A stretch of 56,583 nt of DNA. It comes from Candidatus Woesearchaeota archaeon. Lineage in GTDB: Archaea > Nanobdellota > Nanobdellia > Woesearchaeales > ARS49. This document shows positions 2,311 to 56,583 of this stretch, one piece after another. The stretch is taken from positions 1 through 56,583 of the forward strand of contig JACQMV010000057.1 in assembly GCA_016203395.1 (NCBI GenBank). Direction: 5' to 3'. A model generated the notes under the pieces. It ran no database searches and was not told the DNA's origin. It saw only the letters and a program-made list of their open reading frames with translations. The position numbers were made by a program, and so were the translations under genes. How positions within the stretch are numbered: position 1 is the first letter of the stretch; each line of letters starts with the position of its first letter.

Positions 2311-2331
2311 CCTTTTTAAGCCGTAAATTTT

Positions 2332-3213
2332 TTGAGAACCAAGATGAGGAGACCTTTTTATCATGCCTTCAGGAAAACAAAAGAATACCTGATAAAAAAT
2401 AAGCCACCAATAATAACAAACGCTTTCTTTAGAATGTGCAAAATAGCAGAATCAATGCTGTCAGAAACTAGTTCAGTAGAAGATGCTGCGTGGAAAAGCA
2501 GATACTTCACAAAATACTCAATGCCCCAGTTTAAAATAATAACAAACCATCCGGTAGCGGAATATTCAGATGACCACAAAGCACCAAGAGGAAGCATAAA
2601 TGACAATTCTGTAAACAAAAGATTCAATAAAAAACTTTATGACTTCATTAAAAAACCAGAAATATCCCTTCTGGATCTAGGATGCGCAGGAGGCGGCTTT
2701 GTAAAAAGCATTATAGAAGACGGGCATACTGCAATAGGAATTGAAGGATCAAATGCCTGCAAAAAACGCGGATACGGCGAATGGAACAACTGCCCATACC
2801 ATTTATTCACTGCAGACATAACGCAGCCATTCAGAATAACCAATGCTTCAGGAAAACAAATAACGTTTGACGCAATAACCGCCTGGGAGGTTCTTGAGCA
2901 CATACCTGAAAACAAATTAAATAATCTGCTCCTGAACATCGCAAGACACGCACATCAGGAAACAACACTCATTGTATCTGTAGCGACAACAAAAGACGAA
3001 AACCCAATTGAAGGGACAATATACCATCATACAATAAAGCCAAAAGCATGGTGGCTACAAAAATTCTCCGAACACGGTTTTATTGAAATAAAAAATCATC
3101 CTTTCAAAACACCAGATTATATAAGGGGAAACGGCATAGGATGGAAAAACTGGGATCCTGCAGATGGTGATGGATTTCATCTCGTAATGAAAGCATCCAA
3201 AAAACATCGTTAG
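2332..3213 (+). CDS. Class I SAM-dependent methyltransferase
   Basis: 293 aa. Has the SAM motif I LLDLGCAGGGF, followed later by AITAWEVLEHIP. The ORF opens with TTG; the first ATG is at 2344. Confidence 0.8.
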   Translation: MRTKMRRPFYHAFRKTKEYLIKNKPPIITNAFFRMCKIAESMLSETSSVEDAAWKSRYFTKYSMPQFKIITNHPVAEYSDDHKAPRGSINDNSVNKRFNKKLYDFIKKPEISLLDLGCAGGGFVKSIIEDGHTAIGIEGSNACKKRGYGEWNNCPYHLFTADITQPFRITNASGKQITFDAITAWEVLEHIPENKLNNLLLNIARHAHQETTLIVSVATTKDENPIEGTIYHHTIKPKAWWLQKFSEHGFIEIKNHPFKTPDYIRGNGIGWKNWDPADGDGFHLVMKASKKHR

Positions 3214-6743: not shown

Positions 6744-7613
6744 TCAGCTCGCCTCAAAAACCGGCCTCTCCGTATAACCAGAACGATCCAACCTAACAAA
6801 CTTAAAAGACTTTCCAAGATCTTCCATCCATTTTATTGTGCTAATCATTGAATCGCGAGCCAAACAACCAAGCAAAACAGCAGCACCATCACCATTCATG
6901 TCTTTCTTGTCACAATAGTGATCAACAATGAAAGCAGGCAGGTTATCAATGTCAACAAGATAGAACCCGCCATCACTTTTTATTTTTAACGAATCAAAAC
7001 CCACTTTCGCCTCTGCCAAAAAACCAACCATGCCTGAAAAGTCAGGAGCGCGAGAAGTATGAATTGTGGTAACCCCTTTAATTTCAACAGCATCCTGTTC
7101 AAGCCCAAGCTCAGCCATCAATTTCTGATAAGCCGATGCCTTAAAATCCATGCCATTATCATTCATGACAAGACCTGCTGCAGAACAATCTATCATCCCA
7201 CGCACGTGAGTGACGTTTGGAGAACGCCTGCATGCAAGAATCTGATTGCCGAACTTCAGCGCAACACCAACCGCACCAACACGCATACTGTTGTACGTAT
7301 TTACGCTTAATCTTTCATCAAGCGAACAAGCATATGATGACGTAACTGCATAATACGTTTTAAAATCACAGGGCCTGAACTTCAACACATTATTCGCATA
7401 CCACAAACAACCTAAGCCACCTTGCACAGAAAAAACCTTATCTTTGCGCTCTGCCTTGAGTTTATGCCAAAACTTTTCAATTACGATTTTTTCGCGCTCA
7501 CTCAAGCAAGCAGAAAAATCATCACCATCAACACTTATAGAAATATTCTCATAACAATATGGAGAATCAAACAAACCAAAAAAACCAATATCAAAATTCA
7601 TACAATCCTCCAT
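6744..7613 (-). CDS. Hypothetical protein, possibly degenerate Nudix fold
   Basis: 289 aa. The segment ACRRSPNVTHVRGMIDCSAAG...ASAYQKLMAELGLE resembles a decayed Nudix box. Its architecture parallels 11790..12743. Confidence 0.4.
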   Translation of the reverse strand: MEDCMNFDIGFFGLFDSPYCYENISISVDGDDFSACLSEREKIVIEKFWHKLKAERKDKVFSVQGGLGCLWYANNVLKFRPCDFKTYYAVTSSYACSLDERLSVNTYNSMRVGAVGVALKFGNQILACRRSPNVTHVRGMIDCSAAGLVMNDNGMDFKASAYQKLMAELGLEQDAVEIKGVTTIHTSRAPDFSGMVGFLAEAKVGFDSLKIKSDGGFYLVDIDNLPAFIVDHYCDKKDMNGDGAAVLLGCLARDSMISTIKWMEDLGKSFKFVRLDRSGYTERPVFEAS

Positions 7614-9892
7614 TCAGGAGCAGGAATCACGAACTGAAGACCTTTACTCCGGTACTCTTCATTATTACGAATAATCTCATCAGCAAAATTCCAGGCGAGC
7701 ACAAAAGCATACTCAGGAAGCTCACTTTTCCAAGACTCCTTATTTCTAACAGGAATTCTGACACCTGGAACGGTTTTGCCATGCTTTAACGGATTATCCT
7801 CAACAATGTAAGCAATATCATCATTAGTTATACCATAAAAATTAAGAAACGTCGTGGCTTTTGCAGGAGCACCATAACCAACAATCTTCTTCCCATCATT
7901 CTTTACAGCATCAAAAAATCCCTTAACATGACGCTTCATCTCCATAAGCTTACGAGCAAACTCCTCAAATGTTGAAAACTTATCAAGGCCAGCATGTCTT
8001 TCTTTCATAATAAACTCATCAACAGAAGAATGTTGAGGATAAAAACCCGCTTTCTGAACAAAAACACGCAATGAGCCGCCGTGCGTATCAACATGCTCAA
8101 CCATGAAAACATTCATGTCCTGCCTTTTGAAAAACTCCTGCAAGGAAAGCACACAAAAATAAGACAAATGCTCATGATAAATATTATCAAAAGAAAGCCG
8201 CAATACTGTATCTAAAAGATACTGAACTTCAATAATCAAAACACCATTGTCCTTCAACAAATTCTTAACGTTTCTGGCAACCTCTTTGATATTACCAATG
8301 TGTGCAAAAACATTATTGGCAGTAATCACATCTGCCTTGCCCTGCAAAGAACAAATACTATTAACAATATCATCATTAAAAAATCCACAAAATGTTTCTA
8401 CACCATTACTTCTTGAAATTTCACAAATATTAGACGCTGGCTCAACTCCAACTACGCGAATTCTTTTTTCCTTGAACTTCTTAAGAAGAAAGCCGTCATT
8501 ACTCCCGATATCAACAACCAATGATTTGTCATTAAGCCCTAAAAAACCTGAAACAGAATCGGCCATTTCTGAAAAATGCCTCCGGAACGTTTCAGTAGTT
8601 GATGAAACATACAAGTAATTAGAGAACATCTTTTCAGGAGCAACAACATACGAAAGCTGGCAAAGAAAACACTTTTCGCAAAACATCAGCTCAAGAGGAA
8701 AACTCTCTTCCTTGCGATGGAGCTCATTTTCAGATAAAAGTGCATTTGCCAAAGGAGTGTTACCAAGAGAAATAACATTACGAAGAGAATCACTGCCGCA
8801 AATCCTGCACTTTTTCTGAAACCCATAATTTTCCTGCTCTTTCAATGCTTCTTCAGTCCAGCGAATAAACCGCTGCAAACCCTTGACAAGCCCTACTTTT
8901 GGGAAATAACCAATCACTGTTCTTATTTTAGTAAGATCAGGACAGCGCCTACTAACATCTGCCTTGGAATATGCTTCATTAGGACCAACAACCTGATGAA
9001 CAACACTATTCTCGTTTTTCACAAGACCTGAAACAATCTCAGCCAAGTGGCGCATTTCAATCTCTTGCTCATCACTGCCAATATTGAAAACCTCCCGGTT
9101 ATACTTAGACAGAAGAACCTGAAAAAAGCCAGTGATAGCATCAGTAACATAGCACCATGTTCTAGTATTTCTGCCATCCCCATACACAGGAATCTTCTCA
9201 CCCTTAAGCGCAGCAACAACAAAATTAATCGCACCACGACCATCATCCAAACGCATACCCGGACCATAAATGTTAAACGGACGCACTATCTTAACAGGAA
9301 TCCCAAAATTAAGAGAATACGTCATGCATAATGTTTCACCAATCCTTTTTGGCTCATCATAAGCAGCCCTAGGACCTATACAAGACACATTGCCATTATA
9401 CGTTTCAGGCGTTGGAATAAACTTAGAATCAGGATTACCATACACTTCACTTGTGCTGAAAAACAAAAAACTCTTAACATTCTTAACCCTTGCCAGCTCA
9501 AGCAAGTTCTTCGTACCTAAAAAACCAACATCAATAGTTTCTAAAGGAAACTTACTGTAAAACAACGGAGCAGCAATACTCGCAGCATGAAAAATAAAAT
9601 CAACACCGCCCTCAATATTAACCGGCTTTGAAATATCCTGCTCAATAACCGAAGTGTTCTCGTCCTCTTCAATAATCCCTTTTAACCCAGTAATGAAATT
9701 ATCAAGAACAATAATCCTACACGGCTTTTCAAGCACAAACTTGTTCAGATACTGCAAAATCAGAACAAGATACTTGCCAAGAAAACCAGCACCTCCTGTA
9801 ATAAGCACAGCGGTATTATTAAACGCAGCAGTCAAACTGCCTAAATCCTGCGCAATCGTGCGAATATCCTCCTGAATAATCCTACTTACCAT
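7598..9892 (-). CDS. Fusion protein: UXS-like extended SDR (N-terminal) + zinc-ribbon/class I SAM C-methyltransferase (C-terminal, TylC3-like)
   Basis: 764 aa. Residues 1-350 carry ITGGAGFLGKYL, STSEVYG and YDEPKRIGE. Residues ~360-764 carry CRICGS...CEKCFLCQL (Cys4), VVDIGSNDGFLL (SAM motif I), ANNVFAHI and HEHLSYF...THGGSLRVF. The domain junction is near nt 8815. Confidence 0.75.
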   Translation of the reverse strand: MVSRIIQEDIRTIAQDLGSLTAAFNNTAVLITGGAGFLGKYLVLILQYLNKFVLEKPCRIIVLDNFITGLKGIIEEDENTSVIEQDISKPVNIEGGVDFIFHAASIAAPLFYSKFPLETIDVGFLGTKNLLELARVKNVKSFLFFSTSEVYGNPDSKFIPTPETYNGNVSCIGPRAAYDEPKRIGETLCMTYSLNFGIPVKIVRPFNIYGPGMRLDDGRGAINFVVAALKGEKIPVYGDGRNTRTWCYVTDAITGFFQVLLSKYNREVFNIGSDEQEIEMRHLAEIVSGLVKNENSVVHQVVGPNEAYSKADVSRRCPDLTKIRTVIGYFPKVGLVKGLQRFIRWTEEALKEQENYGFQKKCRICGSDSLRNVISLGNTPLANALLSENELHRKEESFPLELMFCEKCFLCQLSYVVAPEKMFSNYLYVSSTTETFRRHFSEMADSVSGFLGLNDKSLVVDIGSNDGFLLKKFKEKRIRVVGVEPASNICEISRSNGVETFCGFFNDDIVNSICSLQGKADVITANNVFAHIGNIKEVARNVKNLLKDNGVLIIEVQYLLDTVLRLSFDNIYHEHLSYFCVLSLQEFFKRQDMNVFMVEHVDTHGGSLRVFVQKAGFYPQHSSVDEFIMKERHAGLDKFSTFEEFARKLMEMKRHVKGFFDAVKNDGKKIVGYGAPAKATTFLNFYGITNDDIAYIVEDNPLKHGKTVPGVRIPVRNKESWKSELPEYAFVLAWNFADEIIRNNEEYRSKGLQFVIPAPEWRIV

Positions 9893-10355: not shown

Positions 10356-10410
10356 ACTGCACTATAAGAATATCAAAGACAGTATTCGTCCATGCTCAAA
10401 ATCCTCTGAA

Positions 10411-10990
10411 CAAATGAAATATTTGCCTTGCAGCCCTTGCTAATTCTTATCTTAAACGAGGTTATAACTTATCAGCGGCCTTGCTAATTATCTTAAATGA
10501 GCACATAATTTATCAGCAGCCCTTGCGCTCTGACTGCTGGTTTAACGCAATTAGCAATTTTATTGACAAAAGCAATACCCTTTGTTGCAGCCGATTGCAA
10601 ACACAACGCAAACAAAAGGTAAGGGCTTGGTGTGACAACAAAACAAGAGCTTTCAAACTACTCATCAAGCCACAAGGGCTGTAGAAAAATAATAACCTCT
10701 TCTTTGGTAAGTAGTGGCAGGTGCAAGCAAATGGTAAGGCAAGTATGACGACAAGAAAAGACACGTTCAAATCATGAGCCAAGCCACAAGTGCTGCAGAA
10801 ACGTAGCATCATCTTACACTTTTATCTTTTTTATGAATAGCTGTAGAAAAATAACAACACCTTCTTTGATATGTGTCAGCAGGTGCGAGAAAAGAACAAA
10901 ACATTCTTTTATACGGATTAACTGCTGGGGAAATGACTATGGCGGCGGAGACAAACATCTGAAAATTAATATACGCTGCTATAGTTGCGT
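10411..10990 (+). repeat. Modular repeat, copy A (U-U-core-T'-halfcore-T-H; composite)
   Basis: The U units start at ~10431 and ~10477. The core is 10517-10681, bounded by CAGCCCTTGCG / CACAAGGGCTG. A second partial core plus tail follows at 10682-10900. Hairpin H is 10937-10984. Confidence 0.9.
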
Positions 10991-16930: not shown

Positions 16931-17268
16931 TTTCTCTTTGCAAGTCCTCTAACAACCTTTGTAAGTGCCTGCTCCATCTTTTCAAAACGAACATACATCC
17001 TGAAAACAAGATAAAACAAAAGAGTAATCCCACCATACACAAAAATATCCACTCCTCGCTGTATGCCAATCCTGGCTGACAACAAAAACGTGTATTCAGG
17101 GAATAATGACAAAAGAATCAAAATAATCCACGTAACAGACCAAAACAAAAATTCCCCAAGAGAAACCTCCTTGTCTTTCCAGCGCAAAAATGCCCTTGAA
17201 AAAGCAAACAAAGCAAACAAAACTGCAACTATCTGAACAACTTTAATCATTGGAACAGCTTCCTCCAC
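16927..17268 (-). CDS. Small 4-TM membrane protein (DUF2304-like GT2 partner)
   Basis: 113 aa with four hydrophobic segments. It lies directly downstream of, and overlaps, a GT2 gene, as DUF2304 genes commonly do. Confidence 0.4.
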   Translation of the reverse strand: MEEAVPMIKVVQIVAVLFALFAFSRAFLRWKDKEVSLGEFLFWSVTWIILILLSLFPEYTFLLSARIGIQRGVDIFVYGGITLLFYLVFRMYVRFEKMEQALTKVVRGLAKRK

Positions 17269-17912
17269 AACATATCAAACAACACCTTCAATGCCTGCGC
17301 ATAAGAACCATGACCCTTTCTTGAATGAGAATATTTAACAACAACAGGAACCTCAACAAATCGCAGATTATTCTTTTTCACCCAATCAACAATTTCAGAA
17401 GCATGTCCCATCCTGTCAGAAAGAATATTCAAGCCAATAGCTGCTTTTCTTGAAAACGCCCTAAAACCATTATGCGCATCAGTCATCCTAACCCTATAAA
17501 AAACCCAAACAACAAAAATACTGCCAAACAACAAAAGTCTGCGCAACAAAGGAACTTTTGAATGCCCTAAAAATCTTGAGCCAAAAACAACATCAGCACT
17601 ACCTTCTTTAATAGGAGCAACAACTGCTTTAATATCTTCAATGCGATGCTGACCATCTGCATCAAAAGTAACAATAATATCCGCACCCTGCTCTAAAGCA
17701 TGTTCAACACCTGTCTGCAACGCAGCACCCTGCCCACGATTAATAGAATGAATCAAAACAATCGCGCCGGAATTTTCTGCCTCTTTAAACGTATTGTCTC
17801 TGCTGCCATCATCAACTACAATCACATTCTTGTAGCCAAAAGAAAGCAAAGAACTAACTACTTTTGCAATATTCGCTTCTTCATTATATGCAGCAATAAC
17901 GACCCAGACCAT
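17247..17912 (-). CDS. Glycosyltransferase family 2 (polyprenyl-phosphate glycosyltransferase type)
   Basis: 221 aa. Has VVIAAYNEEANI, VVDDGSRDNT and FDADGQH. Confidence 0.85.
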   Translation of the reverse strand: MVWVVIAAYNEEANIAKVVSSLLSFGYKNVIVVDDGSRDNTFKEAENSGAIVLIHSINRGQGAALQTGVEHALEQGADIIVTFDADGQHRIEDIKAVVAPIKEGSADVVFGSRFLGHSKVPLLRRLLLFGSIFVVWVFYRVRMTDAHNGFRAFSRKAAIGLNILSDRMGHASEIVDWVKKNNLRFVEVPVVVKYSHSRKGHGSYAQALKVLFDMLWRKLFQ

Positions 17913-17968: not shown

Positions 17969-18316
17969 CTACGCAACAGCGTTTTCTCCCTTCTTTAACA
18001 AGCGGACAATAATATGACACTTGCTGGAAACAGTATTGACAGAAGGAATATCTTCCTGCTTCTCAAATTCTTTCTCAAGCCAATCAACATGCTCCTGAAT
18101 TTCTTTCATGATGCCCCTGTCAAGCTTCAACTTAGATAGTTCTTCTTCTATTTTAGGAAAAACAATTACCAACACCTTTGACATGACAGTCTCAGCAGCT
18201 TTCCGCACAGCAGCAATACCCTGCTTTCCAAAATTACGAGAGCAAACAGTATCAATAATTTCAGCAGACTGCTCAAGCTGAGCAAGCAAGGAAATTAATT
18301 CAGCTGTTTCAGCCAT
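17969..18316 (-). CDS. Hypothetical helical protein
   Basis: The ORF is open to 18340, but the ATG at 18316 (MAETAEL...) sits 28 nt downstream of a TATA box. No motif recognised. Confidence 0.45.
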   Translation of the reverse strand: MAETAELISLLAQLEQSAEIIDTVCSRNFGKQGIAAVRKAAETVMSKVLVIVFPKIEEELSKLKLDRGIMKEIQEHVDWLEKEFEKQEDIPSVNTVSSKCHIIVRLLKKGENAVA

Positions 18317-18347: not shown

Positions 18348-18360
18348 CCCTTGCTAAAAA

Positions 18361-18670
18361 TACACGATAGTGGCGGAGGCAGGTATCTGAGAATTAATGT
18401 TCGCTGTTATAATTAAGTAAGTTAGTCTTAAATGTGGCTATACTTTATCAGCAGTTCAGGATAATCCTTATCTTAAATGCGGTCATAATTTATTAACAGG
18501 TCATGCGCTCTGACTGTGAGTTTTAACGCAATTAGCAGTTTTATTGACAGGAGCAATACAATTTGTTGCAAATAATTGCAAACACGATGCAAACACATGG
18601 TACGGGCTTGATGTGACAACAAAACAAGAAACCGAATCAGGAGTCAAGCCACGAGCGTTGCGGAAAAATA
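18361..18670 (+). repeat. Modular repeat, copy B (H-U-U-core; diverged)
   Basis: Hairpin H is 18365-18412, the two U units are 18413-18498, and the core is ~18497-18662. The terminal inverted repeat is decayed in this copy. Confidence 0.85.
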
Positions 18671-18762
18671 TCTGCACAAGCTACATTGCTTATGAATATT
18701 ATTAGCAGACGCTTGGAAAGAGAGGCATATTCCTTGGTAGTTTTTAATCAAGCACGAGTAGA

Positions 18763-19173
18763 TTGACAGCGCAAATGTTCCTGAAAGTTTATATACTAAA
18801 CGCATCTTTTAGACTGATGAGTGATTACAAACGCTTTAGGGTTAATTTAACTACAGGAATTATGTGGGGGGTTATTTCGTATACTTTTTTTACCAGTATG
18901 GGACTGGTTAGTTCATTGAGGCGAAATTCATTGCAGAATGTCACAATACTTAATCAAGCAATACAGATATATAAGTATCAGTGCGAGAATACAGCAAAAG
19001 ATAAAACTATTAGGCAGCTGCGTGAAGAAATGTTGCGGAAGGATCAGATTATTGAGAATTTTAGGGATAATCAAAACAATGCCGGTCAAGAGTCTCAGAA
19101 TTTTGTGGATGATCCGTGCGTTATTAATCCTCTTAATCTGAACCCTCTGCGCAGTATTGATGATAAAATCTGA
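18763..19173 (+). CDS. Hypothetical protein with one hydrophobic segment
   Basis: 136-aa ORF opening with TTG; ATG alternatives at 18775 and 18817. Has a TM-like GIMWGVISYTFFTSMGLV followed by a polar tail. Confidence 0.3.
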   Translation: MTAQMFLKVYILNASFRLMSDYKRFRVNLTTGIMWGVISYTFFTSMGLVSSLRRNSLQNVTILNQAIQIYKYQCENTAKDKTIRQLREEMLRKDQIIENFRDNQNNAGQESQNFVDDPCVINPLNLNPLRSIDDKI

Positions 19174-19214
19174 ATACCGTCATCTTTTTAAATAAGGACA
19201 GTGCTTGTTTTGTG

Positions 19215-19895
19215 ATGAAGCTTTCAATAATAATTCCTTGCTACAATGAGGAACTCACGATAAAAGAAGTTATTTCTCTTGTAGAAAAAGTGGTTTTGCC
19301 TGTGGAAAAGGAGATTATTATTGTTGATGATGGAAGCACTGACAGGTCTAGAGATATTCTTACTAAGATTAAGGGGCATAAGATTTTCTTTCATGAAAAG
19401 AACCAAGGTAAGGGTGCTGCTGTGAGAACAGGCATTATGCACGCTAATGGAGAGATTATTGTTATTCAGGATGCTGATTTGGAATATGATCCCTCTGATT
19501 TTCAGATAATGCTTCAGCCGATTTTAGAAGGGAGAACTGATGTTGTGTTTGGCTCTCGTTTTAAGAATCCTGCACATCACCCTCGTCATTGGTTTTATTA
19601 TCTTGGGAATATCGGGCTTACATTATTCACTAATTTGCTATTTTTTTCAAAAGTGTCTGATATGGAGACGTGTTATAAAATGTTCAGAAAGAATGTTCTT
19701 GAGCACGTGCCTTTGAGGGCGCGTGGTTTTGATCTTGAGCCAGAGCTTACTGCAAAGATTCTCAAGTATGGTCATAAGATTGTTGAGGTTCCTATAAAGT
19801 ATAACTCCAGAAGTGTTGATGAAGGTAAAAAGATTACTTGGAGGGATGGTGTTAAGGCAGCATGGTATCTTCTGAAATACCGTTTCACAAACTAG
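19215..19895 (+). CDS. Glycosyltransferase family 2
   Basis: Has KLSIIIPCYNEELTI, IIVDDGSTDRS and QDADLEYDP. Confidence 0.85.
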   Translation: MKLSIIIPCYNEELTIKEVISLVEKVVLPVEKEIIIVDDGSTDRSRDILTKIKGHKIFFHEKNQGKGAAVRTGIMHANGEIIVIQDADLEYDPSDFQIMLQPILEGRTDVVFGSRFKNPAHHPRHWFYYLGNIGLTLFTNLLFFSKVSDMETCYKMFRKNVLEHVPLRARGFDLEPELTAKILKYGHKIVEVPIKYNSRSVDEGKKITWRDGVKAAWYLLKYRFTN

Positions 19896-20578
19896 CAGTT
19901 GTGTGTGCAACGTATAATGAAGCTGATAATATTACTGAGCTTGTCAAGCAGGTTCTTGTATTTCCTTGTCATTTGGTTGTTGTTGATGACAATAGTCCTG
20001 ATGGAACTTCCACAATAATTTCTGCTCTTCAAAAAGGTTTTAAGAACCTTCATTTGATAAAGCGGGCAGGCAAGCTTGGCTATGGCAGCGCGTATGTTGA
20101 GGGTTTTAGATATGCATTAAATGTTTTGAAGGCAGATTTTGTTGTTAGTATTGATGCTGATTTGTCCCATGAGCCGGGTGTTATTCCTGAGCTCGCGCGT
20201 AAAGCGCAGAATTTTGATGTGGTTATTGGTTCCCGCTACGTGTCTGGTGGTGGTACTTCATGGACTTTGCACAGAAAGTTGATGAGTTTTAGCGCGAATT
20301 TTCTTGCAAGGTTGTTTCTCGGTATTCCTGCACATGACATGACTTCTGGCTATCGTTGTTATAGTGCAAAAGTCATTCGTGCCATTGATTTCTCTGCTGT
20401 AAAGAGTGATGGCTATAGCTTTTTGCAGGAGATTCTTTACAGGGTTCACAAGCAGGGTTTTTCTATTGCTGAAGTTCCTATTTTTTTCAGAGACAGAAGA
20501 GAAGGTAAATCAAAGCTTTCTAAAAAAGAGATTTTTAATTTTTTCAGGAATCTTGTCAGGTTAAGGTTTGGCTATTGA
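19862..20578 (+). CDS. Polyprenyl/dolichyl-phosphate mannose synthase-type GT2
   Basis: 238 aa. Has VVCATYNEADNI, VVVDDNSPDGTS, IDADLSHEP and SGYRCY, the Dpm1/Ppm1-like pattern. Confidence 0.8.
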   Translation: MVSSEIPFHKLAVVCATYNEADNITELVKQVLVFPCHLVVVDDNSPDGTSTIISALQKGFKNLHLIKRAGKLGYGSAYVEGFRYALNVLKADFVVSIDADLSHEPGVIPELARKAQNFDVVIGSRYVSGGGTSWTLHRKLMSFSANFLARLFLGIPAHDMTSGYRCYSAKVIRAIDFSAVKSDGYSFLQEILYRVHKQGFSIAEVPIFFRDRREGKSKLSKKEIFNFFRNLVRLRFGY

Positions 20579-20583
20579 TGTTG

Positions 20584-21294
20584 CTATGTCTCGTATTCTG
20601 ATGCAATCTCGCGTAACTCATCAACCACTTTTCCAACATTCGCTTTACTGAGTTTACGATATCGTGCTAATACTGAATTTATCTCTTCTGCTTTTCTTAA
20701 AATGGTGCAATTAGGATCATCCCGCGCATATATTACTCCGGGAAATGTCCAGTAAATCCCCCATTCTGAGGTTCTTATTCCATTCTCAACTTCCCATGCA
20801 AGCTGTAATGCCATTTCCTTGTGTGTCGGAGGAGAGTAATCAGAAAACGCCCATAAGTTGTGTGATGTTCTAAAAAATCCGAACCAGTAATCGCAGTCGT
20901 TCACAACTTGACCTCTTGGCTCTATGTACCGGTGTGTTTCCAATGCCTCAACTGCTTCTTTCATACGTAACACTAGCTTTTTATTCTCTTCACAGAATCT
21001 CGGTAGTGAAACCTGTCTAAACCCTGCATGTGTTGTTTCATATTGGTCAATCACCGCGTGAATGATGCCATCTTCGTTAAGGTGTCTCAAATTGAGGGTA
21101 GGTCCTGTGCTGTCATCAGTTAGGCGCATCATCAACTGCGCTCCGTAGTATTCTGCAGCAGTTTGCGATAAATGTCCGTGATACACGGGTTTCATTCCTT
21201 CAGGTGGATGTTCTATTATTACATCAACAGCTACTTGTCTTACTTCTTGAAACAGCTTTTTCTCATCCCATGACAACCTGAATTTTGCATTCAT
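20584..21294 (-). CDS. Hypothetical protein
   Basis: 236-aa ORF with non-repetitive composition. No motif recognised. Confidence 0.45.
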   Translation of the reverse strand: MNAKFRLSWDEKKLFQEVRQVAVDVIIEHPPEGMKPVYHGHLSQTAAEYYGAQLMMRLTDDSTGPTLNLRHLNEDGIIHAVIDQYETTHAGFRQVSLPRFCEENKKLVLRMKEAVEALETHRYIEPRGQVVNDCDYWFGFFRTSHNLWAFSDYSPPTHKEMALQLAWEVENGIRTSEWGIYWTFPGVIYARDDPNCTILRKAEEINSVLARYRKLSKANVGKVVDELREIASEYET

Positions 21295-21384
21295 CCGCTG
21301 CTTATTTTATGTTTGAATTATAAAGGTTGCTATTAACTGCGCAGTTCATTTTCATGTTATCCTGTTATTTTACTTTGGCTTCCC

Positions 21385-21712
21385 TCTATTTTGTTGTTTC
21401 TGTGCAACTCTGTTAAAAATTCTCTAGTTAGATGCCCTAAAAAGAATAAGAGTATAAGATAATAATACTTTCCGCAGCTCTTGTGGCTTGGCCCGTAATT
21501 TGAACGCTTCTTGTTTTGTTGTCACACTAAGCCCTTACCATGTGCTTGCGTTATGTTTGCAACCCGGCTGCAACAAAGGGTATTGCTCATGACAATAAAA
21601 CAGTTAATTGCGTTAAAGTTCATCGTCAGAGCACAAGGGCTGCTGATAAATTATGACCTCATTTAAGATAAGAATTAGAAGGATCCTCGGGGGCAAATGC
21701 AAAATCATTTAA
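21385..21712 (-). repeat. Modular repeat, copy C (U-core-degenerate T)
   Basis: The core is 21475-21642. Bases 21511-21675 match 23881-24045 (copy D) with a single mismatch. The 21475-21510 end instead resembles copy E. Confidence 0.9.
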
Positions 21713-21798
21713 GGTATGTTCTGGCAGGGGAAAGTATTTCAATAGAAAAGCTGTTCGGTTATTAAGTTTGTTTTGTACAGGATGGCTTTTTATATTGC

Positions 21799-23649
21799 TT
21801 GTTCTTGGCTTGTCGTATGCAGCTCTCTCACAGGAATATTTCTTATGCTATTGTAATACTTGCGTCTATTCTTTCTGTTATCTCAGTTTTGCCTTTGTTT
21901 AATTCAGGTATTCCTATGAACATTGATTCTCCTTGTCATTATCTTCGTTCATGGTGTGTTGCTAATGTTGATTCTTCGGTTCCTAACAACTGGTGCAATT
22001 TTTGGCAGGCAGGAGTTCCTGTTTCTCAGTATTATTATCCCCTGGTTGATTTTTTGACAGCGTTTATTGGTAAATTTATTGGTTTAGTGCTTTCGTATAA
22101 GCTATTTCTTGTGTTGACTTTGTTTGCTCAGCCAGTTGGTGCCTATGTTTTGTTGCGTTCTCTTGGCCATGAGCTTGCAGCGGGTTTTGCTTTCGCTTTG
22201 CTTGTTCTTAATCCCGGTAGTTGGCATTTTGCCGGTTTTGAAGAAGTGTTCTTAGTCGGGCTTTCACCGTATGTGTTGTCAATTGGTTTTTGGCTTTTGG
22301 GCATGGCTTCGTTTTTGTATTTTCTTCGCAGCCCTTCGTTTAAGTCATTAGTTCTTGCAGTAATTCCTACTTTGTTTATTACTCATCCTATGACTCTTAT
22401 TTTTGCTGCTGTTTCTTATGTTTTTTTGGCAGTTGTGCATTACAAGCAGTTGTTGGCTCACAGGAAACTAGTTTTTCTTTTTGCGTTTTCTGTTTTGATT
22501 ATTAATGCGTATTATATTATTCCTTTTTTGCTTAAGCTAGAGTTGTTTCCCAGAGCGATTGGCGGCTGGATTGACTGGAATGATTTTTTGGCTTATGTTT
22601 GGTCAAGAGTTCCATTTTTGTTGTGGGTTTTTGCTTTTGCAGGATTATTATTCATGAACAAGCAACTGCGTTTTCTATCAGTTTTGGTTGGTTTTTGGAC
22701 AATTGTTAATCTTCTGCCAAGGCAGTCATGGCATGATTATTTGATTGGTATTCGTTTTGGTGCGATTCTTGCACCGTTTGTTTTTATTTCTGCTTCAGTA
22801 GTGTTTGAGCGGCTTGCGAAAATCAGAAAGTACGCTCCTTTGTTTTTGCTTGTTTCGTTGCTGGTTTTTACTCCTTTTGTTTGGAAGTTTTTTTCCAAAT
22901 CAAGAGATCTTGGAAAAAGCATTCTTTTGTCAGAGCATGAAGTGTTTTCCAGCCAAAAAGAGGCGTATAAGTTCCTTTCATTAAAAGAAGGCAGGGTTTT
23001 GGCTGAGGAAACGTTGTATAATGCAAATGACGCCCGGGCGTTTACTCACAGTAATTGTATTTTGCCTGTTGTTTCAGGAAAGGAGCTTATTGGTTCTGGT
23101 CTTATTCTTTTCCCAAGAAATAGAACAGTGATGGATATTGGCATTAGTAGCATGGCTAAGAATTTGTTTCATAGACCTTTTTCAGATTATAATGTTTCAG
23201 ATGTTTTAGAAATTTTGCAGGATTACAATATTAGATGGATTGTTGTTCATACTAATGTCTGGTTTGATTATTTCAAGAATTTTGCAATTGCTCAGTATGG
23301 TTTTGGTTCTGTGGGCGTCCTTGAAATGCCTGTTAATAACTCTTGGTTTAAAGCTAATGGGCAGATATTAAGCGAGAAATATGAGGGTATGAAAGCTGAA
23401 GCTGCTGTTGTGCTTAATAATTCTTCGCAGGTTATTTTAAAAACACATTATTACCCTAATTGGAAGGCATTTGTTGATAATTTGCCAGTTAAGTCATTTG
23501 ATTGTAATGGTTTGTTGTGTGCGCAAGTTCCTGCCGGGTCTCATTCAGTTTTGTTTGTTTATAAGACGCAATTCTCAGAATGGCTCGGCTACTTGTTGTC
23601 CCTATTAGGCATTGTTCTCATAGGTTGGTTGTGGAGAAAGCCACAATAA
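21799..23649 (+). CDS. Polytopic membrane protein, GT-C/YfhO-like candidate glycosyltransferase
   Basis: 616 aa, with many hydrophobic helices and then a soluble C-terminal domain containing HYYPNWKAFVDN. Same architecture as 27450..29162. Opens with TTG; the first ATG is at 21817. Confidence 0.5.
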   Translation: MFLACRMQLSHRNISYAIVILASILSVISVLPLFNSGIPMNIDSPCHYLRSWCVANVDSSVPNNWCNFWQAGVPVSQYYYPLVDFLTAFIGKFIGLVLSYKLFLVLTLFAQPVGAYVLLRSLGHELAAGFAFALLVLNPGSWHFAGFEEVFLVGLSPYVLSIGFWLLGMASFLYFLRSPSFKSLVLAVIPTLFITHPMTLIFAAVSYVFLAVVHYKQLLAHRKLVFLFAFSVLIINAYYIIPFLLKLELFPRAIGGWIDWNDFLAYVWSRVPFLLWVFAFAGLLFMNKQLRFLSVLVGFWTIVNLLPRQSWHDYLIGIRFGAILAPFVFISASVVFERLAKIRKYAPLFLLVSLLVFTPFVWKFFSKSRDLGKSILLSEHEVFSSQKEAYKFLSLKEGRVLAEETLYNANDARAFTHSNCILPVVSGKELIGSGLILFPRNRTVMDIGISSMAKNLFHRPFSDYNVSDVLEILQDYNIRWIVVHTNVWFDYFKNFAIAQYGFGSVGVLEMPVNNSWFKANGQILSEKYEGMKAEAAVVLNNSSQVILKTHYYPNWKAFVDNLPVKSFDCNGLLCAQVPAGSHSVLFVYKTQFSEWLGYLLSLLGIVLIGWLWRKPQ

Positions 23650-23681
23650 ACTACAAACAGAAAGCCAAGGTTAATTATGGC

Positions 23682-23721
23682 GGAAGAATTTAATAACCAT
23701 ATAAAAATGGTAAATTCTTCC
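23682..23721 (+). terminator. Perfect 11-bp-stem hairpin downstream of 21799..23649
   Basis: GGAAGAATTTA (23682-23692) pairs with TAAATTCTTCC (23711-23721), leaving an 18-nt loop. It starts 33 nt after the stop codon. A terminator role is inferred only from position. Confidence 0.3.
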
Positions 23722-23725
23722 TCAT

Positions 23726-24160
23726 ATAACAAACGAAACATATGCGAAAATTTACTTCGTTTGCTATAGTAAAGAATAAGTAGGTGCGAAAATATCCCGC
23801 CACTCTTGCTAATACCTGTCAAAGAAGGTGTTGTTATTTCCTAGCAGCCCTTGTGGCTTGATGAGTAGTTTGAAGATATTTTGTTTTGTTGTCACACTAA
23901 GCCCTTACCATGTGCTTGCGTTGTGTTTGCAACCCGGCTGCAACAAAGGGTATTGCTCATGACAATAAAACAGTTAATTGCGTTAAAGTTCATCGTCAGA
24001 GCACAAGGGCTGCTGATAAATTATGACCTCATTTAAGATAAGAATCATCCCGAACTGCTGATAAAGTATAGCCACATTTAAGACCAACTTACTTAATTAT
24101 AACAACAAACATTAATTCTCGGATATCTACCTCCGCTGCTATAGTGTATTTTTAGAAAGG
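23726..24160 (-). repeat. Modular repeat, copy D (full H-U-U-core-T-H)
   Basis: Hairpin H is 24097-24144 and the U units are 24010-24095. The core is 23845-24012 with a perfect 11-bp inverted repeat (23845-23855 / 24002-24012). The T tail is ~23790-23844, and a second H-type hairpin is at 23726-23770. Confidence 0.9.
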
Positions 24161-24169
24161 GCAAACAAT

Positions 24170-25033
24170 TCATCCAGTCAAGTTAATCTCTTCACGTTGT
24201 TGCTCAAGATAAGGAATGGCTGCAAAATACTTCCGGGCCATACCTTCAAGATCTTTAAAACGGTTACTTCTCGTGGTTGCATCATGCTTTCCGTTCAAAT
24301 GCTCTGGCAAAAATGATGCAAACGCAGGCGCATTGAGAGTCTCAAATGCTTCATGATTTGTAGGATCTTTTTCACGAACTCTGCCAAAATCCTCCCAAAA
24401 TCTGGAAGAATCATCATACTGCCTAAATAAGAGATATGCCTCAGAATTCAGAACTCTGCCTTTGGTCATATCTTTTACTACCTGAATTGTATCAGTAACA
24501 GTTAACTCCCTTTCAATAGACCCTACTGATCTAAATAACTTCTTTTTTTCCTGAGATATCCTCACATTGTCCCAAGATTTCACAGCATAATAAATAACCC
24601 CTCCATATATACCATCAAGTAATGCAGTTGGAAAGAACGATCTAGGACTAAGAGAACGGCCTTTAGTAACTAAAAGCTCAACTACCTCAATAACTGCAAT
24701 AGCGCCAAGAGCATACTTCCAGAGCTGCCTTTTCTCACTCTTTTCAAGAATGCGTTCTTTTGCTGCCGCATATTTTCCGTATTCACGCAAAAACTTCTCT
24801 TTCACTAACTTCTCAAGATAAACATATGATGAGGGAGATAAGGCATGCGCGCTTATTTCATCTTCTTTAACACGCTGAGCAAAATACTCACGAATTATTT
24901 GCGTCTTTGGAACACTTTCGTTCTCAAATCGCTCAAACAATTCCAAACAAATTGTTTCAAGCACTTTATTTGATGATTTTGTTTTACTCATGCTATTAAA
25001 TGATATTATTGCTTGATTTTTAAACCCGTTCAA
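24170..25033 (-). CDS. Hypothetical membrane protein (two central hydrophobic helices)
   Basis: 287 aa. Has LWKYALGAIAVIEVVELLV and GIYGGVIYYAV segments. No motif recognised. Confidence 0.45.
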   Translation of the reverse strand: MNGFKNQAIISFNSMSKTKSSNKVLETICLELFERFENESVPKTQIIREYFAQRVKEDEISAHALSPSSYVYLEKLVKEKFLREYGKYAAAKERILEKSEKRQLWKYALGAIAVIEVVELLVTKGRSLSPRSFFPTALLDGIYGGVIYYAVKSWDNVRISQEKKKLFRSVGSIERELTVTDTIQVVKDMTKGRVLNSEAYLLFRQYDDSSRFWEDFGRVREKDPTNHEAFETLNAPAFASFLPEHLNGKHDATTRSNRFKDLEGMARKYFAAIPYLEQQREEINLTG

Positions 25034-30890: not shown

Positions 30891-33800
30891 TTATCGCACT
30901 TTCTCAACTCTGACACGGAAATACAGCGTTTTATTAGCCAGAGGATGCTGAGACGGGTCTAAACCGTAACCTTGCTCAGCCAAAACCTCAATAGTCCGCT
31001 CATCACTCTCTTTCATACCAGCAATACCTTTACTAAACCCGTCAATAAAACCTGCTTTACCATACACAAAATCAACAGGCGAGCCATTTACGAAATCAGA
31101 ACTCGGAGTGACATTACTATCTTTAATAGTGCTATCAAACACTGTTTTATCTGGCTCTGTCCAGCCAATATAGTTCAGCCGAACTCTCGCACCATTCTCA
31201 ATAACTGAGTGAGGAACAAAATCAGAAAGCAATGTGGTGTTTTTTCCTTCCCAATCCACTTTGTACGTATAAATCGGTTGGCCATTAAGCTCTTTCTCAA
31301 CCTTGAAAAACTTATAATACTTCAATCCATGCGCCTGACCAAAGAACAAACGCACAAAAATACTTTTGTGCACAGGAATGTTGGCCAAAATTGCTTGAAG
31401 ATTGCCGTCCTCTTTAGGAAGAATTGCAATACCTGCATCAATAATCCCCTCAGGGTATTCTTTTGAAACAACCTTACCTTCCCTGTTAATATACGATACA
31501 GACTTTACAAGCCCCGGACCCTGATTAGTTGGAACAAATGCTTTATCACCCTCTAAGAAAATACCATTGCCACACTCAACTCTTGAGCCATTTCTGAAAG
31601 AACAGGAAGAAGAGCCACCACTGAAAGAAGGCCAAGGAGCAATCCAACTATTAGCGTCACTCTCAGAAGCAATAGAATTAACCTCCGCATACCTTTGGCG
31701 TGCAATATCATCACTATAATTATATCTCTCTTTCATATAAGCAATTGCATCATCCTTCGGCAGTTTCTTAACATTAACCCACAAATCAGCCCTTTCAAAA
31801 TTCCATGAACCAAAATGCGCCCAAACACCGCCCTTACCAATCATATCATTACTAGCAATAACAAACGCTTCAGGGGGCTCGCAATGCGTAAACCCGAGGA
31901 CTTCTTTAATCTGCGAATCATTAAACAGACTGGCTTTCAAAATGCGTGCAGCTTCCTCTTTATTAGAAACGGTCAAAGAATTTATTATTTTGATAGATGC
32001 AGGAGTGAAATTAATAACCTCATTAACCTTTTCAAATGCCTGATTGCCACCACAATCCAGCATTCTAAGAATGCCAATACTTTCTTCTTCATCCTCAGTC
32101 AAAAACAACTTTCCAACCCAATGAGCCATCGGCGTATTCTGCCAAGCACCATCAAAAGTAACAGGGCGGTCAGCAACATACTTAAAATGATGACCATAAT
32201 CCCACCAGCTCGTAATAATCGCATTAGCCATACTTGATTCCCTAATCTCAACAAGTGTGTTATACCACGCATCATTCATAATAGGAACATCATTTCTTGA
32301 AAGCCCATAAGAACTACCTACTGTGCTGCTCATGGAAAGAGCGAACAACACAAATATAATCAGCGTAGTTATCCATTTCTTAATCCCAAAATTCTTCAAA
32401 CAGAAATCCCCAATAACCTTTACCAACAGCCCGGCAGAAATACCGAACGCAATAGCAAATGGCGGAACCATCATCATAACAAAACGAACACCCTTTGTAG
32501 TAGCATACATTGCTGCAAAAAACCAAATAGCCAAAAATATAGAATAGCCTGCTTCGCGATGATTATGCTCATCACGCATGAACAAACAAAGACCAATCCC
32601 GATTAAAGACAACAACAACAGATAATTCCCGAACTGGCGAACGACATCCTTAAGCGAAATAGGATTAAGCTCGGCAACAGTTGTATAAACATTCGGCCAA
32701 AGATTTGAAGCAGACGCTTCCTTAATCATAGTAAATCCGAACGGCGCAAAAGGCGCATCCAAAAAGCCAGAAACCCTGCCCTGAAACAAAGAAACAAAAA
32801 TTGCTGAAACAACAACAAGAACAATACCATATAAGACGGCATTCTTAAGCCGGGAATCAACAAGTATGCCTGATAATTTACTGCCTTTAATCACCTGATA
32901 AACCACGGCAAGAACGATTAACGCAATAATTGCAACACCTGCAACAACAAACTTCTCAACAAACAAGCCAATTAATAATACTAGCGCTAAAATGCCAACA
33001 AGCCATCTCATATCAGATAAAAACGCACGCCAACTGGAAAATAACCCGAGAGCATACAAAATCCTAATAATTGCGTAAACCCCGAAAGTAGCAAGAATAA
33101 AATCAAAAATATACCACCAGCCACCCCAAGCAATAGAATAAAGCCCAATAACAAAACCACAAATTCCTGCAAACGCCCACTGTTTACTTTTTTCTTTCTC
33201 ATGAAAGCCCGCCAAGAACAAAAATGAAATCAGCATCGGAAACAAAATATTGTAAGCATCAGTATCGGCATGCCCCCACAACGTTCTGCCAATAACTGCA
33301 GGATGAAGCCCGAGCATAGCAACAGCAAAAAAACCACCAATCCATCCGCCATAACGACTGGCTAAAAAGTAAGCAGGAATGAATGACAAAAACATAAGCA
33401 CAACAGGAAGATAATTTGCACTCTCCATCAAAGGAACCTTTCTGAACAAAGAAACAATCTTGTGAAAGTAAGCAATAACATAAGGATGCAAGTCATGAGG
33501 ATCGGTAGTAGAACCGCGAGGAGCAATAACATGGTCGTCCCACTGCTTTCCATCTTTTATCCGATCACCAAGAATTCCTTTATCAAGATAATTCCTTGCC
33601 AACCGAATATAATTATACGGGTCAATGTCCGGCATGTAAGTATAAGTCTTGCCATCTTCAGTATACTCAAAATGTGACTTGAACTGGTTTGTAATCTGGT
33701 CTGTTTGCTGAGCAATCAAATCCTTCTGAGAACTCATAATCTCATCCAAATTGTCATCAACAAGCTGTTTCTTCCTGTCATCAGGAAGATTCGGATACTG

Positions 33801-34208
33801 CTGGTTAATCTGATCAACAACCTGATTCCTATAAAAATCATTCACAGCATTCCTTGCCCAATCAAGAGTAGGTGGAAGCGAAGCACCCTGCAAGCTAGTC
33901 CATGTTGCCCCCCACGGGCAATGAAGCTTTCCAACACAAGGAAAGAAGTTGGAATTAGGAACAAACTGCAAAAGCATAATCAAAAGAAAAACCAGAACTG
34001 TTTTGTATTTCAGCACAAACTGCTTTATAACCCCAAAATCAAAAGAGATATCTTCTGGTGAGGAAGAATTACTTTTTAAACCGGGCATGTCAGAATTCTC
34101 AGAAGAAGAACTCCTGCGTCCAGAACTGAAAAATCCTTTTATCTTATTCCACAACTTGCCAAAATCAATAGTAATATCGTCCTCTGCCACAATACTGAGG
34201 AAGAGCAA
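30891..34208 (-). CDS. aglB: Archaeal oligosaccharyltransferase AglB (STT3 family) with C-terminal FKBP-type peptidyl-prolyl isomerase domain
   Basis: 1105 aa. Has the first-loop acidic motif MPDIDPYNYIRLAR, multiple TM helices and the catalytic WWDYG (ITSWWDYGHHF). The last ~100 aa (nt ~30894-31202) read VRLNYIGW..KTVFDST...FVYGKAGFIDGFSKGIAGMKESDERTIEV..EQGYG...TLYFRVRVEKV, an FKBP_C pattern. Confidence 0.85.
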   Translation of the reverse strand: MLFLSIVAEDDITIDFGKLWNKIKGFFSSGRRSSSSENSDMPGLKSNSSSPEDISFDFGVIKQFVLKYKTVLVFLLIMLLQFVPNSNFFPCVGKLHCPWGATWTSLQGASLPPTLDWARNAVNDFYRNQVVDQINQQYPNLPDDRKKQLVDDNLDEIMSSQKDLIAQQTDQITNQFKSHFEYTEDGKTYTYMPDIDPYNYIRLARNYLDKGILGDRIKDGKQWDDHVIAPRGSTTDPHDLHPYVIAYFHKIVSLFRKVPLMESANYLPVVLMFLSFIPAYFLASRYGGWIGGFFAVAMLGLHPAVIGRTLWGHADTDAYNILFPMLISFLFLAGFHEKEKSKQWAFAGICGFVIGLYSIAWGGWWYIFDFILATFGVYAIIRILYALGLFSSWRAFLSDMRWLVGILALVLLIGLFVEKFVVAGVAIIALIVLAVVYQVIKGSKLSGILVDSRLKNAVLYGIVLVVVSAIFVSLFQGRVSGFLDAPFAPFGFTMIKEASASNLWPNVYTTVAELNPISLKDVVRQFGNYLLLLSLIGIGLCLFMRDEHNHREAGYSIFLAIWFFAAMYATTKGVRFVMMMVPPFAIAFGISAGLLVKVIGDFCLKNFGIKKWITTLIIFVLFALSMSSTVGSSYGLSRNDVPIMNDAWYNTLVEIRESSMANAIITSWWDYGHHFKYVADRPVTFDGAWQNTPMAHWVGKLFLTEDEEESIGILRMLDCGGNQAFEKVNEVINFTPASIKIINSLTVSNKEEAARILKASLFNDSQIKEVLGFTHCEPPEAFVIASNDMIGKGGVWAHFGSWNFERADLWVNVKKLPKDDAIAYMKERYNYSDDIARQRYAEVNSIASESDANSWIAPWPSFSGGSSSCSFRNGSRVECGNGIFLEGDKAFVPTNQGPGLVKSVSYINREGKVVSKEYPEGIIDAGIAILPKEDGNLQAILANIPVHKSIFVRLFFGQAHGLKYYKFFKVEKELNGQPIYTYKVDWEGKNTTLLSDFVPHSVIENGARVRLNYIGWTEPDKTVFDSTIKDSNVTPSSDFVNGSPVDFVYGKAGFIDGFSKGIAGMKESDERTIEVLAEQGYGLDPSQHPLANKTLYFRVRVEKVR

Positions 34209-48086: not shown

Positions 48087-48644
48087 TCACTTTGCTTTTC
48101 TTATTCCTGCACGCATTCCTAATGGAATTCCTATTGCAAGTGCTGCTATGGCCCCCACTGTATAAAGAACTATTTTGTAGGTTTCTGTCAGAACCTTGAT
48201 TTGCAGTTCTGCTATTTCAAGCCCTGCGAGAATGAATAATACTAAAACTAATGCGTACGCACCTATTGCTATATTCTTTTTCTGGCTTAATGTTGTTTTT
48301 AGGCATGCTGTTTCAGCAAGTTTTGCCAGATAAATCCCTATTATAATTATTATTGATGCAATTATGAGCTTTGGAAGATAGAGTGCAACCTTTTGAGTGA
48401 GTTGTGTTAATACATCAAACCCGAACATACTCGTTGCTTGGGTGATAAATATAAGCAATATACTTACTTGTAAGAACAACTTAGCGAGCTTTATTGCAAA
48501 CATTACCTGATGCCCTACATCCTGCCTTGCTTTTGCCCACTTCACAATCCCTTTTGTGAAATAATTCACGACTGCTCCTATTATAAGTGCTGCTACTACT
48601 CCACCTACAATAAAGCCGAGCGATATCAATAACTTGTATTCCAT
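48087..48644 (-). CDS. Membrane protein with repeated TM-helix motif (MscS-N-terminal 'conserved TM helix'-like)
   Basis: 185 aa with four long hydrophobic helices in two similar halves. Assigned by resemblance only. Confidence 0.35.
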   Translation of the reverse strand: MEYKLLISLGFIVGGVVAALIIGAVVNYFTKGIVKWAKARQDVGHQVMFAIKLAKLFLQVSILLIFITQATSMFGFDVLTQLTQKVALYLPKLIIASIIIIIGIYLAKLAETACLKTTLSQKKNIAIGAYALVLVLFILAGLEIAELQIKVLTETYKIVLYTVGAIAALAIGIPLGMRAGIRKAK

Positions 48645-52633: not shown

Positions 52634-52689
52634 ATCAACTGATTCAATACGCACCAATCGTCCTGCTAGAAATTATCTGAGCAAATGAG

Positions 52690-53146
52690 CCATTTGCCTT
52701 GCAACTCTGGCTAACTCTTATCTTAAATGAGCACATAATTTATCAGCAGCTCTTGCTAATTCTTATCTTAAATGAGCACATAATTTATCAGCAGCCATTG
52801 TGCTCTGATTGTAAACTTTAATGTGCTCAACTGTTTATTTGTCATGAGCAATACCATTTGTTGCAGCCGGTTGCAAACACAGTGCAAGCAAAAGGTAAGG
52901 GCTTGGTGTGACAACAAAACAAGAAGCGTTCAAATCATGAGCCAAGCCACAAGTGCTGCAGAAACGTAGCATCATCTTACACTCTTATCCTTTTTATGAA
53001 GGGATGTAGAAAAATAACAACATCTTCTTTGATATGTATCAGCAGGTGCGAGAAAAGAACAAAACATACTTTTATACGTATTAACCGCTGTGGAAATAAC
53101 TATAGCGGCGGAGACAAACACCTGAAAATTAATATACGCGGCTATA
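52690..53146 (+). repeat. Modular repeat, copy E (U-U-core-T-H)
   Basis: The two 45-bp U units start at 52711 and 52756 (42/45 identical). The core is 52792-52958, followed by the tail. Hairpin H is 53100-53146. Confidence 0.9.
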
Positions 53147-56271: not shown

Positions 56272-56470
56272 AATCTACTTAATGAGCGTTCTTTTCTTCC
56301 CCTTGCTAAAAAGTCCTTATTAATGCAATTAGACATTTCATTGACAGGAGCAATACTATTTGTCGCAACCTGTTGCAGAAGGTTGCAAACACAATGCAAG
56401 CAAAAGGCAATGGCTAAGTGCAACGAAAAGATGATATACTTTCAAATCATGAGTCAAGCCACTAGAGCTG
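56272..56470 (+). repeat. Modular repeat, copy F (degenerate U + divergent core)
   Basis: Has ...CCCCTTGCTAAAAAGTCC..TTAATGCAATTAGAC...GGTTGCAAACACAATGCAAGCAAAAGG...CAAGCCACTAGAGCTG. It is colinear with the other cores but has indels. Confidence 0.75.
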
Positions 56471-56583
56471 CTAAAAAAGAAAGGTGATTGAGTACTTTTC
56501 GGACCAAAAAAGCTTATAATTAAGCAAAACTACGACGATATTGATGAATCAAGTAATGTCAAACATGTATTTCGCAGGTAGAA

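Follow-up and report, generated by a model that had tools for sequence, protein, structure and literature searches.

A modular intergenic repeat family with putative recombination footprints in a woesearchaeal N-glycosylation cluster

The window analysed here, a metagenome contig of 56,583 nucleotides (nt) from a Candidatus Woesearchaeota archaeon (JACQMV010000057.1 of assembly GCA_016203395.1), has a G+C content of 38% and is dominated by protein-glycosylation genes, which encode an AglB/STT3 oligosaccharyltransferase, PMT_2 enzymes, glycosyltransferases of families GT2, GT4 and GT9, a flippase and sugar-nucleotide enzymes. Between its genes lie six copies (A to F) of a repeat of ~350 nt, two of which, C and D, bracket a gene for a polytopic membrane protein of predicted GT-C fold (21817..23649, plus strand, 610 amino acids (aa)). 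DPANN archaea, the host group concerned, depend on contact between cells, and viruses and hosts probably target the glycans on their surface; to our knowledge, little is known of how surface-glycan loci vary in these tiny genomes. The window is a concrete example, an N-glycosylation operon that appears to have been colonised by an undescribed repeat family.

All six copies are intergenic and together fill almost all of the long intergenic regions of the window. Each is laid out as a sub-type-specific 5′ flank, an imperfect palindrome of ~170 nt, one to three tandem modules of 45 nt and a terminal T-run, and the conserved terminus of the family is TTTTTAGCAAGG. The ends of the palindrome are inverted copies of a box, CAAGGGCTGC, with which every 45-nt module also begins; the box is found 15 times against 2.7 matches expected. 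The family profile also matches the opposite strand of each copy, which identifies the core as a palindrome. Copy C (21439..21785, plus strand) combines an E-type 5′ flank with an imperfect palindrome (21474-21643), a single 45-nt module (21634-21678), one degenerate module and the terminus TTTGTTTTGTACAGGATGG. Copy D (23797..24161, plus strand) joins an A-type 5′ flank (23807-23874) to a palindrome at 23844-24013, delimited by perfect 12-nt terminal inverted repeats (GCAGCCCTTGTG, 23844-23855; CACAAGGGCTGC, 24002-24013), and to a B-type 3′ part (24046-24161) that ends in TTTTTAGAAAGGG and abuts the 3′ end of a convergent gene, Y.

Four copies lie on the minus strand. Copy B (18348..18685) is inverted relative to D and matches it at 87% identity across 223 nt in the 3′ part of B, with an exact run of 33 nt among them. 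Copy A (10393..10983) is composite, with an E-type upstream region, a truncated left arm (10721-10796) and then a full copy with ~2.3 modules. Copy E (52664..53146) has two 45-nt modules and sits between two convergent genes; A and E have a 241-nt upstream region in common (91% identity; 52906-53146 on the E side). Copy F (56307..56481) is divergent, its right arm and modules deleted and its terminus TTTTTAGCAAGGG retained. The gene directly downstream of copy A (7598-9892, minus strand, 764 aa) encodes an NAD-dependent sugar epimerase/dehydratase fused to a zinc-binding C-methyltransferase (Methyltransf_13/14).

A seventh copy, 81–84% identical, was found in another groundwater Woesearchaeota metagenome-assembled genome (MAG), on L001 (145-216 and 356-642), between a tRNA-His gene and a very long open reading frame (ORF) that opens with a GxSxG hydrolase-like region. 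The 8-kb locus around it has nothing else in common with the window and holds no glycosylation cluster. This was the single match in a search of 185,579 species genomes. Two patterns returned no copy from the JGI metagenomes (19 matches to a relaxed pattern are at chance level), and none was found in IMG/VR or in phage and plasmid records. The family is lineage-restricted and previously undescribed.

Copies C and D are nearly identical across 165 nt (21511..21675 and 23881..24045, both plus strand): 164 positions agree, and the sole mismatch, A at 21553 and G at 23923, divides the block into exact runs of 42 and 122 nt. The pair reported by the repeat finder is wider (21474-21675 and 23844-24045, 202 nt, 94%). 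Outside the block, identity falls to 27 of 45 positions upstream and 14 of 50 downstream, and the remaining pairs of copies are 70–94% identical across the same core columns. At a per-site identity of ~90%, a match of 164/165 has a calculated probability below 1e-6, so the C/D identity is not due to chance; the lower identity of the other pairs and the sharp drop at the flanks mark it as discrete and recent, rather than as family-wide conservation. One caveat is that bubble-popping during metagenome assembly could have removed a few real C/D differences within the block. The two direct copies are 2.37 kb apart, and their common core is about equidistant from copies A and E, which favours neither C nor D as the donor.

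Beyond the block, the nearest neighbour of each copy changes from segment to segment. The 5′ segment of C comes nearest to that of E (80%) and to the second-genome copy, and the 5′ segment of D to that of A (78%, 30 nt of it in one exact run). At the 3′ end, D groups with B (94%, then 80%) and A with E. Copy D is accordingly a three-way mosaic, A-like, C-identical and B-like in turn. An initial annotation of this DNA had described the 165-nt block with its one differing base, the shared plus-strand orientation of the two copies around a single gene, and the E-like and A-like 5′ ends of C and D; alignment bears out each of these, and ORF 21799-23649 stands alone between C and D. The same annotation took C to be a recombinant of two sub-types, which holds as far as mosaicism goes and has to be widened, since D is no less mosaic than C and all the copies are patchworks. 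The exchange between copies that it proposed finds support in the sharp edges of the 165-nt patch and in the segment-wise switches of nearest neighbour in all copies. On these alignments, mosaicism is a property of the whole repeat family, and exchange between copies is real.

A second event can be read from base composition. Across ~45 genes in either orientation, the plus strand has an AT skew at third codon positions (AT3) of about +0.5 and a GC skew (GC3) of about -0.4. The sign is the same in genes of both orientations, so the skew is tied to the strand and not to gene direction; its magnitude is enough for codon choice to depend on strand, and the relatives are without a comparably strong skew at synonymous sites. 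The strand skew works as a built-in inversion detector. Between B and D lies a segment of 5.1 kb (18686..23806) that contains a 132-aa ORFan, two GT2 genes (19212-19895 and 19862-20578), ORFan X (236 aa; 20584..21294, minus strand, divergent from copy C), repeat C and the GT-C gene. All five genes have a reversed AT3 (-0.23 to -0.52) and four of the five a reversed GC3 (+0.21 to +0.46), gene X staying negative at -0.17; at four-fold sites the AT skew (AT4) is -0.14 to -0.57 within the segment, compared with +0.5 to +0.66 for the genes to its left. Raw GC skew flips sign at ~18.3-18.5 kb and at ~23.7-23.9 kb, inside the mutually inverted copies B and D.

Gene order in relatives, obtained by BLASTP of the neighbouring proteins, gives an independent reading. 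There the order is AglB, PMT_2, the orthologue of GT2 19212-19895, GT-C, then the orthologue of GT2 17247-17912, followed by DUF2304, GT9, GT9, one more gene and GT9, all co-oriented. In L002 the GT-C gene is directly followed by the orthologue of GT2 17247-17912, the spacer in the closest relative being 23 nt, and in L003, L004 and L005 the orthologue of GT2 19212 precedes GT-C. Un-inverting 18686-23806 moves the GT-C gene to the minus strand, where B, the 115-aa ORFan and GT2 17247-17912 come directly downstream of it, and only by this operation is the relatives' gene order recovered. Skew sign and synteny are two independent lines, and together they show inversion of the segment, which takes in C, the GT-C gene and the inner half of D, by recombination between two repeat copies: as judged from both, the 18.7–23.8-kb segment lies inverted with respect to its long-term orientation and ends in copies B and D. 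The near-complete reversal of skew indicates a single evolutionary inversion and not rapid switching, and the very strong strand skew of this genome dates it as recent. Before the inversion, five of the six copies would have been co-oriented with the operon.

Elsewhere in the window, genes in 48087-51460 have a weak or partly reversed skew (AT3 -0.39 to +0.08), with no clean double reversal. This region, which could be an older rearrangement or foreign DNA, includes a pair of small YoeB-like genes and a direct repeat of 83 nt (50657-50739 / 51441-51523, 88%).

The gene enclosed by C and D had initially been described as encoding 616 aa, from 21799 to 23649, and as GT-C-like. The span is that of the ORF; the database gene call begins at the ATG at 21817 and gives 610 aa, and a TATA-like box (21785-21797) lies just outside repeat C. 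Pfam did not recognise the 610-aa protein, and one of its homologues matches PF10131. An AlphaFold (AF2) model built from a seven-sequence alignment (mean predicted local distance difference test score (pLDDT) 76.8, predicted template modelling score (pTM) 0.79) has a polytopic N-terminal membrane module and a soluble C-terminal domain, and its Foldseek matches are STT3, AglB, PglB, ArnT, AftD and AftA (probability 1.0, template modelling score (TM) 0.45–0.5). The model and its matches thus uphold the GT-C assignment at the level of predicted fold. GT-C glycosyltransferases have a conserved acidic residue in their first extracytoplasmic loop; here, residues N35-I36-D37, which follow the first helix and are invariant in seven homologues, may have a catalytic role.

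Homologues of this protein (35–60% aa identity) are encoded in tight operons, and no repeat is present at any homologue locus; in relatives (40–59% aa identity), spacers of 10–40 nt separate the gene from the same GT2 neighbours. Its gene is, from conserved gene order, an ancestral, syntenic member of the glycosylation operon; the full magnitude of the genome-specific skew within it shows long residence in this genome, in the opposite orientation, and again argues against recent import. By the same comparison, the novelties in this genome are the repeats and the neighbouring ORFans rather than the GT-C gene. The ORFans new beside the repeats are of 115, 132, 236 and 273 aa, the last being Y (24170..24991, minus strand, convergent on copy D). 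The orthologous junction in relatives is without ORFan X; a search for homologues of ORFan Y, made to locate an 'empty site' in relatives, found none among 5.8 billion proteins, and no paralogy was found among the repeat-adjacent ORFans. ORFans without Pfam domains lie at 17969-18316, 18775-19173, 20584-21294, 24170-24991, 52070-52633 and 53178-53756, and most copies (B, C, D and E) have one or two alongside. It seems that the ORFans came into the ancestral operon along with the repeats.

In the account that we favour, and to which we attach moderate confidence, a modular repeat has spread in an N-glycosylation operon, with gene conversion between C and D, an inversion between B and D, and an old resident in the GT-C gene. 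Repeat copies and ORFan genes would have been inserted at gene junctions of an ancestrally compact archaeal operon, and the copies would now be substrates for homologous recombination, probably of the RadA type. The C/D near-identity would be the tract of a recent non-reciprocal exchange (gene conversion) between direct copies, and similar, older exchanges would have turned every copy into a patchwork. A crossover between the inverted copies B and D would have flipped the 5.1-kb segment holding C and the GT-C gene, which would be a long-standing member of the operon with its own promoter.

Several observations weigh against this account. No direct target-site duplication is visible at the outer ends of the copies, whose borders are blurred by sub-type flanks and nested fragments, and no transposase, integrase or recombinase domain occurs in any window ORF scanned; it is solely from the distribution of the copies that we infer past mobility. 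With seven copies known, the tests of RNA structure described below are low-powered. Conversion associated with a crossover, in a Campbell-type integration, would look the same as simple gene conversion. Four Logan assemblies (k=31) from the same population, which hold exact copies of the flanking proteins, confirm neither the orientation of the segment nor the exact sequence within the block. One of their contigs, L029, tracks the window as far as 23769, the end of a hairpin in the 3′ flank of the GT-C gene (CAAACGAA...TTCGTTTG, 23730..23769, plus strand), and then (2122-3117) enters a different locus, which lies on another contig in the NCBI MAG and encodes a membrane protein of 97 aa and a lycopene-cyclase-domain protein identical (100%) to NCBI HY486_01240. 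The junction falls right after the hairpin, and three single-nucleotide polymorphisms (SNPs) stand in the final 30 nt before it. Either L029 is a chimera joined at a short terminator-like sequence common to both loci, or it represents a real variant; it hints at extra structural heterogeneity outside the favoured model.

The Logan contigs break off where the C=D block begins and ends, and exactly at the 33-nt run of B and D, which confirms these stretches as genuine repeats in the reads. When a crossover falls within an exact repeat longer than k, it yields no new 31-mer, which makes the contigs uninformative on a deletion between C and D. A further contig, L026, ends in Nextera adapter sequence (CTGTCTCTTATACACATC, 4315-4331), and contig tips in the Logan collection can be artefacts.

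The initial annotation had read C, the gene and D as a cassette with presence/absence variation. In its fullest form, a circle carrying the GT-C gene and one repeat would have integrated through a single crossover with a resident repeat (Campbell integration), leaving two hybrid direct repeats, and RadA-mediated loop-out would lose the gene or let it be regained. In favour of such a history, C and D are direct repeats with a 122-nt exact run, each is a hybrid of different sub-types, as expected after a crossover, copy D has no downstream gene of its own, and L029 puts the 3′ flank of the gene in another context. The gene, however, occupies its ancestral syntenic position, with the same GT2 neighbours in repeat-free relatives, and bears the full genome-specific synonymous skew, absent in those relatives, of a long-term resident; moreover, a crossover between copies of 85–90% identity does not by itself yield 164/165. 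That the repeats travel with the gene was likewise rejected, as they are absent from all loci of its homologues. We therefore regard the cassette as unlikely and its presence/absence variation as unsupported by synteny or composition. Loop-out of the GT-C gene between C and D is mechanistically possible, given the exact run, and would be a possibility rather than an observed event.

Also unlikely, in our judgement, is that the repeat is a functional unit, either a structured non-coding RNA gene of ~300 nt or a terminator or insulator bound by a regulator at the CAAGGGCTGC boxes, with selection maintaining the C/D identity. The forward strand folds as a long rod (copy C, -64.4 kcal with z -3.0; the reverse strand has z -0.7), the boxes are enriched as described, and every copy closes with a T-run, a termination signal in archaea. 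The co-orientation of five of six copies with the operon before the inversion, and the conservation of the seventh copy at an otherwise unrelated locus, are also as this reading would have it. Yet the stability of the hairpin varies from copy to copy (D, -67.7 kcal, z -5.9; B, -37.7 kcal, z -1) and is weak in the second-genome copy; covariation is absent (term +0.45, with 2 of 47 pairs compensatory and the outer stem broken in three of six copies, from seven sequences and hence at low power); and copies A and F are truncated or nested. A conserved RNA structure was rejected on these grounds. Rfam returned zero matches in the whole window, copy D giving only chance-level matches (E of at least 2.4), and a known RNA family was rejected accordingly. 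Nor can selection bring two copies to agree at every site while other copies differ by 10–15%, or explain why the edges are sharp.

Two further functional candidates were set aside. A small protein gene was suggested by a 38-aa ORF in C and D, which is broken by 1-nt indels in the other copies; since this is the only ORF, the repeat is non-coding. A promoter or 5′ leader, akin to the JUMPstart element upstream of glycosylation operons, does not suit copies D and E, which lie between convergent genes, and the TATA boxes fall beyond the 3′ end of the repeat: in this genome they stand ~30 nt ahead of each ATG, and for the genes after A, B and C the box is just past the repeat terminus.

An assembly artefact is a still poorer candidate. 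In that case the block would be one de Bruijn node used twice, or the product of popped bubbles, with C and D really diverged and the B–D orientation perhaps mis-resolved; the metagenomic origin of the contig, the very abrupt change in identity and the halting of independent k=31 contigs at the block edges and at the B/D 33-mer are all in keeping with it. Those same stops, however, place the block in at least two contexts in the reads, the mismatch splits it into 42 and 122 nt, below the usual final k-mers or read lengths, the exact B/D run of just 33 nt is trivially resolved, and contig L025 is 99.97% identical to the window from the flank of C to the inside of B. Least credible of all, to our minds, is that the repeats are more than selfish DNA and form a dedicated partitioning and recombination system of a DPANN surface-glycan locus, in which copies would terminate transcription and insulate blocks, CAAGGGCTGC iterons would recruit a host protein, and shared cores would let glycosyltransferase blocks be inverted, deleted or swapped between co-resident lineages; if true, it would provide phase-variation-like glycan diversity without a site-specific recombinase.

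The AglB/STT3 oligosaccharyltransferase (30891-34208, minus strand, 1105 aa) carries a C-terminal FKBP-type peptidyl-prolyl isomerase domain, an unusual fusion. At the left end of the window, the contig start truncates a paralogue of the PMT_2 gene 3223-4866; a 158-nt stretch of it (1-158) is 99% identical to the 3′ end of that gene (4453-4610), with 79–84% identity in adjacent sequence (a second matching pair is 179-324 and 4631-4776). This is a further conversion-like patch, in coding DNA.

On the account favoured here, gene conversion and inversion between copies of a modular repeat around a resident GT-C gene, the window would contain a new repeat family of MITE- or BOX-like type (MITE, miniature inverted-repeat transposable element) that provides portable homology inside a surface-glycosylation cluster. 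It would offer two readable footprints of homologous recombination, the conversion tract of C and D and the inversion between B and D, and it yields a prediction, deletion of one GT-C enzyme. Such repeats break short-read assemblies exactly where variation would show.

Among known systems, the family resembles, by analogy of form, MITEs or the BOX elements of pneumococci. Prokaryotic MITEs, among them the Correia elements of Neisseria and ERIC, are known promoters of rearrangements, including inversions (PMC10969869). Like them, the window repeat is short, non-coding and dispersed in multiple intergenic copies (six in 56.6 kb and one in the second genome), on either the 5′ or the 3′ side of genes, with terminal inverted repeats in copy D and a long imperfect palindrome as its 170-nt core. 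Unlike them, it is a longer, composite element that adds 45-nt modules and a terminal T-run, and is without similarity to catalogued elements; membership of the class is incomplete, as neither a target-site duplication nor a cognate transposase was found. Our literature search turned up no MITE family described in DPANN.

BOX elements have the architecture boxA-(boxB)n-boxC, with a variable number of a 45-nt internal module, stable hairpins and no transposase of their own. The window repeat is likewise modular, with a variable number of 45-nt modules, stable hairpins and no transposase of its own, and it clusters in intergenic regions as the pneumococcal elements do (clustering: PMC10969869). 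Sequence and host domain are unrelated, and the modules here follow a large palindrome instead of lying between two end boxes.

Integron attC cassettes also present co-oriented imperfect palindromes around a single gene. The window differs from them in having no integrase (neither IntI nor attI), in repeats of ~350 nt, two to five times longer than attC (57–141 nt), and in copies that occur in both orientations and bracket multi-gene blocks and operons; the gene bracketed by C and D has its own promoter and is syntenic in relatives. Invertons, shufflons and the capsule promoters of Bacteroides share with the B–D segment the theme of a segment in a surface-polysaccharide locus, bounded by inverted repeats and found inverted. 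Here, by contrast, there is no invertase or other recombinase gene in the window, the inverted repeats extend over 223 nt with an identity of only 87%, and promoters move with their genes, so that no ON/OFF logic is evident.

A parallel in content is with the replacement flexible genomic islands for surface glycosylation, whose variation is attributed to homologous recombination under selection by viruses (PMC4033161); a Haloquadratum island is an example (PMC4535781). Both concern a cluster for cell-surface glycans and homologous recombination. The events documented in the window, conversion and inversion, are all intragenomic; and whereas exchange between strains in flexible islands goes through conserved genes on the flanks, the homology here would come from repeats scattered within the cluster.

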